Assembly: GCA_031385045.1 (NCBI GenBank)
Contig: JANNBC010000048.1
Coordinates: forward strand, 64,001 to 128,000
Direction: 5' to 3'
Origin: a bacterium
GTDB lineage: Bacteria > Bdellovibrionota_C > UBA2361 > CALJRW01
DNA: 64,000 nucleotides
Shown: piece by piece, positions 29,362 to 52,610 of the stretch
How the letters are laid out: each line of letters opens with the position of its first letter
Position numbering within the stretch: position 1 is the stretch's first letter
Translations under genes and position numbers: made by a program
Notes under the pieces: generated by a model
Told to the model about the DNA's origin: nothing
What the model saw: the letters and a program-made list of their open reading frames with translations, nothing else
Database searches by the model: none

Positions 29362-30165
29362 ATGAAATTCTTACCCTATTGCTTACTACTTATTTTCTTA
29401 ACCTCATGTTCTGTCCAACGCAAACCAGTTGTGGCAGGAGAAATTCCATTACAAGGCGACTTGAACCCTCAAGAGATTGAGTATGGAGCACAAGTTTTTA
29501 ACCAACTGGCAGCTGAGTATCCAATGGAAGAGGATCTAGCATTAAACTCACGAGTTAGAAAAATTGTTACCAGACTGTCAAATGCTGCTTCCGGTAATAA
29601 CGGAGGAAATCCTTGGCATGTCTATGTGTTTAAGGATGATAATTTTAAGAATGCTGCGGCTACAAGGGGAAACTATATTTTCGTTTGGACTGGAATTCTT
29701 AATACCACTGAGAGTGACCATCAACTTGCAACAATTCTGGCCCATGAAGTAAGTCACGTCCTAGCAAACCACACAACGCCAACCTCGGGAGAAGCAGCAA
29801 ATCAAATTATAGCTGGCAGTAGTGGACAAGTTGCCTCTTCCGTCCTAGCTGCCAGTGGTCAATACTATGGAATTGCCAATATCGCTGGCCAACTCACATC
29901 TGCATTAATGCAAGGGTTAATTGTAAATCCAGGATCACAACGGTTAGAAAGTGAAGCTGATACCATTGGCTTATTTTTAATGGCCAAAGCTGGTTACAAT
30001 CCTCAAGCTGCCCTAGATTTTTGGAATCAAGTTCGACAAGATCCTAACTTTGGCGGTGCCTCCATTAGCTTCCTATCCACTCACCCAAGCTCCGAAGCCC
30101 GAATCATCAATATCGAGAAATACCTCCCCCAAGCCCAAATCCTCTACCACAAATCCCGCAAATAA
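29362..30165 (+). CDS. M48 family metallopeptidase lipoprotein
   Basis: Lipobox LTSC; LAHEVSH; ESEAD; STHP. Confidence 0.9.
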   Translation: MKFLPYCLLLIFLTSCSVQRKPVVAGEIPLQGDLNPQEIEYGAQVFNQLAAEYPMEEDLALNSRVRKIVTRLSNAASGNNGGNPWHVYVFKDDNFKNAAATRGNYIFVWTGILNTTESDHQLATILAHEVSHVLANHTTPTSGEAANQIIAGSSGQVASSVLAASGQYYGIANIAGQLTSALMQGLIVNPGSQRLESEADTIGLFLMAKAGYNPQAALDFWNQVRQDPNFGGASISFLSTHPSSEARIINIEKYLPQAQILYHKSRK

Positions 30166-30170
30166 CCTCC

Positions 30171-30189
30171 CCCCGACTTCTCTGATACC
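30171..30189 (+). repeat. dispersed motif copy CCCCGACTTCTCTGATACC
   Basis: Related copies at 41175, 44892, 52542 and 52592. Confidence 0.7.
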
Positions 30190-30337
30190 TTATTAACTTA
30201 ACTTAGCGCATTAAGACTACCACCCAACATCACTGTTACTTAAAAAAGCGAAAAAATGGCATATCTTCACTAGCCCCCCAAATACCACTAAAGTCCCAAT
30301 TCCTATCAGCCGATACCCATTAAAATCAAGGAAGATT

Positions 30338-30928
30338 ATGAATTGGCTATTAAACATCTTAAATCAGTTACTCAACCACAAGACTCAGGAAGACACCTGG
30401 CATCGTATTTCAACTCCAGTTCGCCGGATGAATGCTGATGTCCAAATTAAAAACACTATACAGCCTCCAGATTCATACTCAGAACAACTTTTTCAACAAA
30501 AAGTATCGATGATTGAGCAATCTTTGCGACTTGCTAAAGATCAAGCAAAAAGTATTAATCAAGCTGTACAGAATATTCCAACTCATCCGGAAAGCATTGA
30601 AGAAGCTATTAAAGAAATCATTAAAAATTGTGATGCCGTGTCTCTAAGTGGGATACAAATATTAGAAGGCGAACCAATTCACCTAAAATATCAACAACAA
30701 GAACTGGTTATCCAATTGCCTTCATGTAGTAAAGAAATTCTTGATTTATCAAGAGATCGGAAGTTTCTACCTAACGTAAATCAAAAAGTGCAGGAATTAA
30801 GCTTAGCTATTGATGCCTCCCTAGAAAATTTACAAAAATTTCTAACCAAAATTGAAACCGGACAACAAAATTATCTTTCTGCTGGCATTGACTTAAAGCT
30901 TTTTCAAAGCCAAATAACTGATGCCTAA
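30338..30928 (+). CDS. hypothetical coiled-coil protein
   Basis: 196-aa ORF preceded by AAGGAAG. Confidence 0.65.
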   Translation: MNWLLNILNQLLNHKTQEDTWHRISTPVRRMNADVQIKNTIQPPDSYSEQLFQQKVSMIEQSLRLAKDQAKSINQAVQNIPTHPESIEEAIKEIIKNCDAVSLSGIQILEGEPIHLKYQQQELVIQLPSCSKEILDLSRDRKFLPNVNQKVQELSLAIDASLENLQKFLTKIETGQQNYLSAGIDLKLFQSQITDA

Positions 30929-31059: not shown

Positions 31060-31141
31060 ATATACTAAAACCGATTAGGTTTTAGCGAACTGCTAGGAAA
31101 AATGCGGATTGCATTTTTAGTTCATTGGGGTTTTAGTATAT
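31060..31141. repeat. miniature inverted-repeat element
   Basis: Perfect 13-bp terminal IR ATATACTAAAACC/GGTTTTAGTATAT with internal hairpins. Confidence 0.6.
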
Positions 31142-31224
31142 TTGTTTTCCCCAGATAAAATGCTTGTAAAATAAGCATTTTAGCCTGAGCAACCCCCTTG
31201 GGTCGCTTCAAGCGCTTTGCGCTT

Positions 31225-31279
31225 GATATACTAGGCGACTAATTTTAGAACAGTAATTTCTAATGTCGCCTAGTATATC
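31225..31279. repeat. miniature inverted-repeat element
   Basis: Perfect 15-bp IR GATATACTAGGCGAC/GTCGCCTAGTATATC; inner TTAGAA/TTCTAA. Confidence 0.65.
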
Positions 31280-31348
31280 TAAAAAGTAATTGACCTGAAG
31301 AGCGTTAAGCCTTTGGTTGGACACCATATTTGTTATTTAGCTATTTCA

Positions 31349-39675: not shown

Positions 39676-40602
39676 CTACTTTGCGACAAATAAAACTGGG
39701 CGATAAGTACCGGGTGGAAATTCAGCATTAAGGTTTCCATTTCGATACTGCTCTGAGGCATTCTTGAATGCAAAATAGATCTTGAAGTACCAGTCAACAA
39801 ACTTAGCCCATCTGACTGAACAGATAGAAAGAATCCTAGGTCGTTTTTTATTAAAATTGCTTTGTTTGGTATTTTTTGGCAAGGATCCTGGTTGTTTTTT
39901 TAGTAATTTATCGCGCCCTACAAAGCCAACTCCATTACTCATTCTGCTTTGTACAATTTCTCTGATTCGCACTTCTAGTTTTTGAATCATCAATTTTTCA
40001 TACTCATTCTGAGTAAGACTCTCATACCCAGGCAATCTTTTAAATTTTAATTGAACAGTGTAAGTATAATCTTCAATCCTAACATCATGAGACCATCTTT
40101 TCTTCTCATTATAATCTTTCCATTTCACCACCTTAAACTTTCGTACTATCCCCCTGATTGAATCATAAAAACAATTATACCCGGGATAATCTTTAATATG
40201 CCTCACCAATCCATCCTTAACCGGCTGTAAGACAGTATAAAAAAAATATTCTTCAATATCATCAGCACCAGGCGTAAACTCATTGGAGTATCTTCTAGCA
40301 AAGAGATTACTTCCTGGAAATTGACCACAACGTCTACTTACAGCACGAGCAATTGAAGCATTAAGATCTCTCATAAAACTAGCCCGATTGGAATTAGGAA
40401 AATGTGCCAGCTCATGATGATGATTCCCCTCAATCGCAATAGCATATAGATCTACATTATAGATCTCAGAATACTTAGCAGTGTATGCCAAGATATCCTG
40501 TTCTAGCTGAAAATTATTAATGAACCATAATTCGGAGTTCCTTGTTCTCGTCGTACAAAAGGAAGCTATTTCTGATGATTCAATTCTAGGATGATAAGAC
40601 AT
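39676..40602 (-). CDS. HUH/Y1 tyrosine transposase-like protein (RAYT/IS200-like)
   Basis: CTTRT, EGNHHH (HUH), FMRDLN, LFARRY, YTVLQPVKDGLV (catalytic Tyr), DYPGY, C-terminal FPPGTY. Confidence 0.8.
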   Translation of the reverse strand: MSYHPRIESSEIASFCTTRTRNSELWFINNFQLEQDILAYTAKYSEIYNVDLYAIAIEGNHHHELAHFPNSNRASFMRDLNASIARAVSRRCGQFPGSNLFARRYSNEFTPGADDIEEYFFYTVLQPVKDGLVRHIKDYPGYNCFYDSIRGIVRKFKVVKWKDYNEKKRWSHDVRIEDYTYTVQLKFKRLPGYESLTQNEYEKLMIQKLEVRIREIVQSRMSNGVGFVGRDKLLKKQPGSLPKNTKQSNFNKKRPRILSICSVRWAKFVDWYFKIYFAFKNASEQYRNGNLNAEFPPGTYRPVLFVAK

Positions 40603-44857: not shown

Positions 44858-44891
44858 GGTTTAAAAATCTTCAAAATTTAACTAAGTTGCT

Positions 44892-44910
44892 CCCCGACAT
44901 CTCTGAGAAT
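44892..44910 (+). repeat. degenerate dispersed motif copy CCCCGACATCTCTGA
   Basis: First 15 bp match the consensus of the 30171/52542 copies; intergenic. Confidence 0.55.
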
Positions 44911-44920
44911 TTAGATTAAA

Positions 44921-52541: not shown

Positions 52542-52610
52542 CCCCGAGTTCTCTGATACCAAAATAGAACGGTGAAATCGTTATTTCATCCTCCCGATAT
52601 CTCTGATACT
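52542..52610 (+). repeat. tandem pair of the dispersed motif flanking a hairpin
   Basis: CCCCGAGTTCTCTGATACC (52542) and TCCCGATATCTCTGATACT (52592), 50 bp apart; GGTGAAAT-cgtt-ATTTCATC between them. Confidence 0.7.

Follow-up and report, generated by a model that had tools for sequence, protein, structure and literature searches.

The M48 gene end

The window, by which we mean the whole 64,000-nucleotide stretch of DNA that was analysed, comes from the genome designated here G000, and at the locus of interest the 3' end of a peptidase gene is followed by a pair of short repeats, a stretch of intergenic DNA and a second gene in the same direction:

29362..30165, plus strand: intact gene for an M48 family peptidase, 267 aa (open reading frame; Pfam PF01435, E 1.9e-30)
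30061..30165, plus strand: C-rich silent-site tract, the last 34 codons of the M48 gene (codon counts)
30172..30188, plus strand: repeat copy 1, a half-palindrome of the type CCC-R-A-NNN-C-N-CTGA-Y-AC (pattern and weight matrix)
30223..30239, plus strand: repeat copy 2, decayed (alignment with the same-genus genome G001; weight-matrix score 20.7 bits)
30242..30330, plus strand: intergenic tract with C far in excess of G, and A in excess of T (composition; G001 alignment)
30338..30928, plus strand: co-directional open reading frame, 196 aa (ORF call; silent-site composition)

In the last 34 sense codons of the M48 gene, 21 of the 27 codons that can end in C do so, and positions 30061-30180 hold 51 C against 10 G, while only 5 of the 40 codons in 29581-29700 end in C; these counts had been made in an earlier, sequence-only reading of the window and came out the same on recounting. 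The final codons had also been said to end in C without exception, which is correct, and the run is 11 eligible codons long in place of the 10 then given. At the silent sites of the tract, the fourfold positions carry 10 C, 3 A, 1 T and no G, and at twofold positions C is found in 7 of 8 C/T sites and A in 6 of 7 A/G sites. Two elements of the earlier description have to be modified. Namely, what had been called a gradient is a step of about 110-150 nt, and the change, which had been taken as purely synonymous, is not so: the protein is intact, but by our reading of the alignment some 9 of its last 34 residues differ from the orthologue in G001. The excess of C over G does continue to about 30330, as had been claimed, with a GC skew of -0.64 in 30061-30165, -0.64 in 30166-30241, -0.49 in 30242-30330 and -0.11 past 30330, where it fades; over 30061-30330 as a whole, the GC skew is -0.59 and the TA skew -0.21. 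Close to where the intergenic tract ends there is a possible third half-site (30307-30317), weak and unscored, and the silent sites of the following open reading frame, for which neither Pfam nor NCBIfam gave a match, are at background level from about 300 nt beyond the motif. A search of Rfam for structured RNAs gave no match near threshold.

How unusual is such a gene end? Open reading frames were called mechanically over the whole of G000, with 2345 kept and 2335 of these having a stop, and in the C-ending fraction of its last 34 codons the M48 gene ranks first among the 2335 ends (0.78, as compared with a mean of 0.19, a standard deviation of 0.09 and a runner-up at 0.60; binomial p 1e-9, or 2e-6 after correction). 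Equal skew at many motif-free gene ends would have refuted the sequence-only reading, and none of the other ends approaches this value. It is possible to ask whether chance or an assembly artefact could have produced the patch: the assembly consists of 61 contigs, and among the contig pieces listed from independent runs none spans it. However, the corrected p value stands against this, the frame and the protein align with G001 through the patch, and the patch is neither of low complexity nor duplicated, with only the motif recurring in blastn, so that we consider an artefact very improbable. The observation at the M48 end is real and far beyond chance, and the M48 gene itself is a bystander whose 3' end bears the shift.

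In a genome-wide scan of G000 for synonymous C patches, the M48 patch scores best. Other C-rich synonymous patches lie beside other short tandem or palindromic repeats (C48:40626-40979, C39:11194-11569, C26:27656-27882 and C2:131260-131491), and further ones, on either coding strand, are intragenic, with no motif copy found (C52:30553-30709, C33:32990-33107, C2:124698-124797 and C5:40623-40950).

The repeat and the Y1/HUH nuclease family

The motif reported in the sequence-only reading, a 19-mer at 30171 that recurs with one mismatch at 52542 (shuffled sequences give 0.01), is confirmed, but it does not stand alone, being the first member of a direct pair with the decayed copy at 30223, whose counterpart is intact at the same place in G001. 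Three further features of the window are relevant here:

39676..40602, minus strand: Y1/HUH (RAYT-like) nuclease gene, 308 aa (Pfam Y1_Tnp; alignment; fold match 4er8)
44890..44911, plus strand: weaker single intergenic copy of the motif, without 5' skew (matrix; flank test)
52543..52609, plus strand: second repeat pair, 52543-52559 and 52593-52609 (pattern; C-rich 5' tract)

The pattern CCCGA-NNN-C-N-CTGATAC occurs 7 times in G000 and a form relaxed by one step 7 times in G001, with 0 occurrences of the reversed control, and a weight matrix built without the leading C run gives 14 matches above 17 bits, against 0 with the reversed matrix. Seven matrix matches fall within about 13 kb of the nuclease gene. 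The motif is found mostly as direct pairs, spaced 40-120 nt apart in intergenic DNA, and three of these pairs, including 30172/30223, occupy orthologous places in the two genomes. A fuller version of the repeat, GGTCTCTGACAC, has 12 copies in the related genome G024 and 16 in G035, and in G029 the repeat is the palindrome GGTGTC-W-GACACC, with 54 copies in that genome and 0 in three congeners. In the copies of G000 and G001 the right arm is left, as is the CCGA start, and by folding the hairpin is lost, copy 1 included; a GTAG foot is absent from the 15 motif copies inspected. CCGA begins most copies in G000, G001 and G024, but not most of the repeats that flank Y1 genes.

Two observations on individual copies may be added. 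At G000:C55:46079-46300, a motif copy precedes argF and inverted copies lie inside the 5' end of that gene, in whose first 50 codons 13 of 33 end in G, among the top 15 of the 2345 open reading frames; and in G024, 11 of the 12 repeat copies are on the contig minus strand, and large C- and G-rich patches occur independently of motif orientation.

The protein encoded at 39676 has a weak match to Pfam Y1_Tnp and contains H61-x-H63 and Y122-xxx-Q126, with Y122 and Q126 invariant across 21 homologues (signature Y-TVL-QP). Its structure model (pLDDT 88) finds as best Foldseek match the E. coli TnpA_REP structure 4er8 (E 1.3e-6), and also the TnpA proteins of IS608 and ISDra2. Judging by the HUH motif, the catalytic tyrosine and the modelled TnpA fold, all three of which are present, it is a member of the TnpA_Y1 superfamily. 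Its NCBIfam score of 36 bits lies under the cut-off of 80. In 7 of the 21 homologues, the second His of the HUH motif (alignment column 63) is replaced by Gln, which may mark weakened enzymes.

Homologues of this protein are present in 63 of the 91 sampled genomes of the order (threshold E 1e-40). Of the 30 best loci, 15 have the repeat core in the 300 nt upstream of the gene and 16 have it, inverted, on the downstream side, the opposite orientations accounting for 6 and 7 of the 30 and the background being 31 of 546 windows; since the core pattern was chosen post hoc from those same flanks, this count has a descriptive value. The Y1 gene of G006 and that of G029 are bracketed by the same repeat variants that are dispersed in each genome, and no repeat was found in the flanks of the gene in G000 and G001. 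The sequence-only reading had named the 39676 gene as a candidate actor at the motif, and the tie holds: by sequence, the motif belongs to the terminal inverted repeats of this gene's family. Given this kinship, which the repeat comparison shows at the level of sequence, the paired 17-nt motif at 30172/30223 is best described as a worn member of a Y1/HUH family terminal repeat, and the 39676 gene as the resident, immobile member of that nuclease family.

G000 has a second, divergent Y1/HUH gene (C28:356-1322, 322 aa, of the Y-xxx-NP type), the flanks of which are without this repeat. In G016, positions C1:400000-419999 hold dense clusters of another short repeat with a GGACACCC core, and the same genome has six near-identical Y1 genes as well as a DinB-type match.

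Strand-specific skew around the repeats

Within the genus, the 120 nt 5' of each motif were compared with the local background and with 3066 control windows. The C excess exceeds 100% of controls at the 30170 pair and 99.7% at the 52540 pair, which bears out the C-rich run that had been described before the 52542 copy; the 5' skew is not seen at the other two pairs of G000 or at its three single intergenic copies. Among the G001 fragments examined (160 kb of 3.3 Mb), all three pairs lie at the 95th-99th percentile and a single intergenic copy does not. Taken together, 5 of 7 paired clusters are at or above the 95th percentile, where it should be noted that the 30170 locus was preselected and that orthologous pairs are not independent. 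The other copies of the motif speak mainly for the sequence-only proposal, with skew at 2 of 4 pairs of G000, 3 of 3 pairs of G001 and in G029; against it stand the single intergenic copies of G000 (0 of 3) and most repeat-bearing relatives.

When the last 34 codons are compared with the remainder of the gene, their C excess is +0.54 for the M48 gene and +0.16 for its G001 orthologue, which has the conserved motif pair and the highest value among 24 orthologues, while it ranges from -0.17 to +0.06 in the 23 orthologues from other genera; the same skew in motif-free orthologues would have counted against the sequence-only reading, and these 23 are without it. Among the silent sites that align within the final 150 nt, C is private to G000 at 12 (where G001 has T at 8, A at 2 and G at 2) and private to G001 at 1. 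Silent divergence between the two genomes is not raised near the motif (0.50 versus 0.44) and is saturated, and because silent sites are near saturation, a raised mutation rate cannot be seen in this way. Contigs of near-identical strains, for which no variant is listed in the patch, are uninformative in this respect.

The pattern is very strong in G029, where 50 stretches around the 59 palindrome matches listed gave, with duplicates merged, a test set of 42 loci. In genes that end at the repeat, C occupies 0.54 of the fourfold sites within 250 nt, as compared with 0.30 far from it, and in genes that start at the repeat G occupies 0.41, as compared with 0.26 far from it; twofold sites shift likewise. 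Of the 36 loci with full flanks, 34 are richer in C on the left than on the right, in both gene orientations (mean +40 against +5 in controls, p 1.5e-11), 27 are skewed on both sides, and the compositional switch is positioned exactly at the repeat, while the composition stays flat around 94 intergenic anchors of G029 that are free of the motif. Relative to controls, the strand that leads 3' away from the repeat has base frequencies of 0.66 for A, 0.63 for C, 1.61 for G and 1.03 for T, irrespective of the neighbouring base; C is lost most sharply within 100 nt of the repeat, and the gain of G decays over about 700 nt. Fourfold purines rise from 0.50 to 0.60. The proteins are also affected: Thr, Pro and His are up in genes ending at the repeat, and Glu, Gly and Val are up and Lys, His and Asn down in genes starting at it. 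Three genes chosen for their strong skew, with the query from a paralogue-rich family excluded, have values of +0.18 to +0.29, as compared with -0.27 to +0.11 for 11 orthologues from palindrome-free relatives. In G029, and at most of the paired copies within the genus, the shift in composition, its strand, its range and its tie to the repeat are thus matters of direct observation. In addition, G029 has at C40 (1309-2232 of the examined stretch) a tRNA-like gene cluster with an inverted repeat of about 90 nt on either side, each having the palindrome at its end, and a dinB gene (Pol IV) begins about 40 nt past the right-hand repeat.

These data bear on two readings in which the repeat would not be the cause. 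First, the M48 transcript may have been selected to end in a Rho utilisation tract, rich in C and poor in G, and the motif would then be a regulatory site that has nothing to do with it. The rho gene is present in G000, as in all 12 genomes searched, the tract is located at the end of a gene, on its sense strand, and extends beyond the stop, the untranslated part (30166-30330) fits, and both skewed pairs of G000 lie downstream of co-directional genes. However, half of the tract (30061-30165) is translated, and ribosomes would be expected to mask it there; none of the other gene ends among the 2335 comes close, the tract is missing from the 23 orthologues, and the G029 genes that start at the repeat turn G-rich on their sense strand, the opposite of a rut site, so that the G029 pattern does not follow the sense strand. 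Such G-rich gene starts are beyond what a Rho tract can explain, and for the M48 end we regard it as highly improbable. Second, causation may run the other way or be a coincidence, with C-rich patches arising otherwise and repeats inserting or surviving in them. G000 does have other C-rich synonymous patches without a motif copy, the skew is missing at most of its motif copies, and G024 and G035 are patchy whatever the orientation of the motif. That said, the switch in G029 falls exactly at the repeat and control anchors seldom reach such values, the orthologous genes are flat in motif-free relatives, and the motif pair is older than the gain that is specific to G000 (the 12 C-only sites against the single one in G001), all of which makes this reading improbable, if somewhat less so than selection for Rho.

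How general is the phenomenon? Apart from the two genomes of the genus, 12 repeat-bearing genomes of the order were examined, and of these one has the mirror-image pattern (G029), one has a pattern on one strand (G075), and the other ten (G024, G035, G039, G008, G070, G079, G026, G074, G078 and G064), with 2-22 intergenic copies or clusters each, have no clear polar skew, several of them being slightly enriched in C over the 100 nt immediately 5' of the repeat. Most of these skew-free relatives carry the nuclease. In G075, the flanks are C-rich on both sides of a one-armed repeat, in 8 of 10 and 9 of 10 clusters, a count that has no motif-free control and derives partly from tandem C-rich duplications; this resembles the M48 locus more than G029 does. 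The identical palindrome outside the order shows no such polarity at 25 loci of Achromobacter and Bordetella and at 52 loci of other taxa, and these 77 loci (of 80 listed, 3 being duplicates, with 42 further loci left out) exclude the skew as an intrinsic property of the palindrome. Within G000, none of the 14 families listed of other abundant repeats is surrounded by strong skew. One palindromic repeat of about 200 nt, at 31060-31285 of the window upstream of ffh, has about 26 loci in the genome and no strong flanking skew.

A bias tied to the repeat might also arise without any nuclease, if an outward promoter or R-loop start, or a hairpin or cruciform that stalls or breaks the fork, exposed the strand 3' of it. 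Deamination of the non-template strand is expected to give the same polarity, the perfectly palindromic repeat of G029 goes with the strongest effect, and the presence of the nuclease does not predict the skew. On the other hand, the G000 copies cannot fold, yet two pairs are skewed; the identical palindrome is free of skew in other taxa, as is the long palindrome of G039; and at the M48 locus promoter and terminator signals are at chance level, the minus-strand promoter-like site near 30335-30362 being one found where 1.2 are expected. We think this explanation unlikely, while granting it some weight. As to host factors, G029 has a true dinB and G000 umuDC instead, but the presence of a Y-family polymerase does not predict the skew (6 genomes with and 3 without a match, 41 versus 35 clusters, p 0.64), and the idea is no more than a lead. 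Loss of mismatch repair is rejected, mutS being present in all 12 genomes searched.

Proposed origin of the skew, and known systems

What remains of the sequence-only proposal, that of a mutational process centred on the motif and driven by an HUH nuclease, is its local, strand-specific and repeat-tied part, borne out by G029, the orthologues and the gene ends; the skew is not universal, being present at only 2 of 4 pairs and at 0 of 3 single copies of G000 and missing from most repeat-bearing relatives. A repeat-linked mutational cause of the skew is, in our judgement, probable. That the nuclease is the trigger of this bias has about an even chance of being correct, and the same evenly balanced judgement applies to the M48 patch being a local, strand-specific mutational scar of nicking at the repeat followed by resynthesis or by exposure of single-stranded DNA.

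In outline, the nuclease would recognise the repeat and nick one strand at or near it, as suggested by analogy with E. coli TnpA_REP, and the strand 3' from the repeat would then be displaced as single-stranded DNA or remade by a host polymerase from the 3'-OH. HUH enzymes cut DNA and do not resynthesise it, so a host step would be needed. At the M48 locus, the affected strand would be the minus strand, from the repeat pair into the gene end. Over rounds of rewriting it would gain G and lose A and C (by A>G, C>T and some pyrimidine>G changes, if the presumed chemistry is correct), leaving the opposite strand C-rich; the direction is seen as composition. With the protein kept by selection, the changes would accumulate at silent sites, and episodic activity could leave some copies and lineages marked and others unmarked. 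The errors might arise in the exposed strand by deamination (C>T, A>G), or in the new strand from wobble and oxidised dGTP, which give A>G, C>T and T>G. The rise in fourfold purines hints at a transversion component and so favours synthesis errors, a question that standing composition cannot settle. Among the observations against the scar model is the excess of C over G that runs 140 nt 3' of copy 1, and copies 2 and 3 are needed to explain it. According to the available text of the E. coli study, the cuts that TnpA_REP makes in single-stranded DNA lie 5' or 3' of its repeat and range over more than 400 nt, and in the model proposed there host polymerases extend the 3'-OH (PMC3333891).

The system has close relatives in the literature. 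In TIRtrons (TIRYT), as described in the accessible part of Di Nocera et al. (2013, PMC3733652), a Y1 gene has flanking inverted repeats that are also dispersed singly or in pairs; these correspond to subclass 2.1 of Quentin et al. (2018). The reverse strand of our motif, GGTRTCAG, resembles the GGGGWSAS consensus taken from that text, agreeing with it at 6-7 of 8 positions. About half of the homologous genes have the repeat next to them (15 of 30 on the upstream side, 16 of 30 on the downstream side), the gene copies of G000 and G001 being without it. In contrast to class 2, which has Y-xxx-NP, the 39676 protein has Y-xxx-Q, and a flanking skew is not mentioned for TIRtrons in the accessible text (PMC3733652). 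With REPtrons (PMC3333891, PMC8266576; Ton-Hoang et al., Corneloup et al.), as far as these accounts extend, the system shares the HUH/Y1 fold, a single-copy immobile gene, dispersed intergenic repeats and a proposed nick followed by host extension, but it differs in that G000 has neither a GTAG foot nor a hairpin, the 39676 protein has about 170 extra C-terminal residues, and the G029 flanks show no dinucleotide footprint of C|T-like cleavage. The Y..Q signature agrees with TnpA_Y1 class 3 (Quentin et al. 2018, 10.1101/279083), and the CCGA start of the motif resembles the CnGA foot; however, most repeats flanking the homologous genes lack CnGA, and the comparison with this class is by signature and description, as given in the available part of that paper.

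The skew as such has another parallel in GRINS, in which GC and TA skews are locally intense, are correlated and recode genes, and for which, in the consulted part of Nivina et al. (2021, PMC8256042), error-prone synthesis is proposed. The M48 patch (-0.59 GC, -0.21 TA) exceeds the absolute skew threshold of 0.15 used there. GRINS are described there as duplicated regions of more than 500 bp in multi-module genes (PMC8256042), whereas the M48 patch, by comparison with that description, is 270 nt long, single-copy, anchored at a short repeat and of defined polarity; with this length, and only the motif recurring in blastn, its membership in GRINS is excluded.

More broadly, at the skew switch of replication origins and in the gradient of the mitochondrial heavy strand, the strand 3' of the start is G/T-rich, decaying with distance, and engineered nickase-polymerase mutators, of which EvolvR is an example, have the same polarity and decay. 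Unlike these, the scar described here spans hundreds of bases, at dozens of dispersed sites and independently of gene orientation. In the literature searched, with subscription journals mostly outside its coverage, we found no report of REP or TIR repeats being surrounded by a halo of skew or of mutations; the word "skew" is absent from the accessible main texts of 10.1101/279083, PMC3733652, PMC3333891 and PMC8266576, and in that of 10.1101/2021.07.10.451892 it has another sense. The repeat and the nuclease are akin to known TIRtron and REPtron systems. What surprises is the strand-specific scar beside the repeat, the cause of which is inferred: one relative shows it very strongly, G000 has it at some of its paired copies, and most relatives are without it.

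We tentatively suggest, rating this at somewhat below an even chance, that a domesticated HUH/Y1 nuclease with its dispersed repeats may be a natural nick-directed mutator, in which the strand leading 3' from each repeat is rewritten again and again towards G over several hundred bases, to a degree that recodes the silent sites of ordinary neighbouring genes and shifts their amino acids. For RAYT-like nucleases, the literature describes, in the parts available, cutting in vitro and models (PMC3333891, PMC8266576). If our suggestion is correct, the scar would be a read-out, from sequence only, of the activity of such a nuclease in vivo, would predict the strand that is cut, and would chart the places, strands and lineages in which these enzymes are active. 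Local skews of the GRINS type would then have a specific origin that can be put to the test, and where a gene ends beside a repeat, its codon bias should not be taken as a sure sign of selection.
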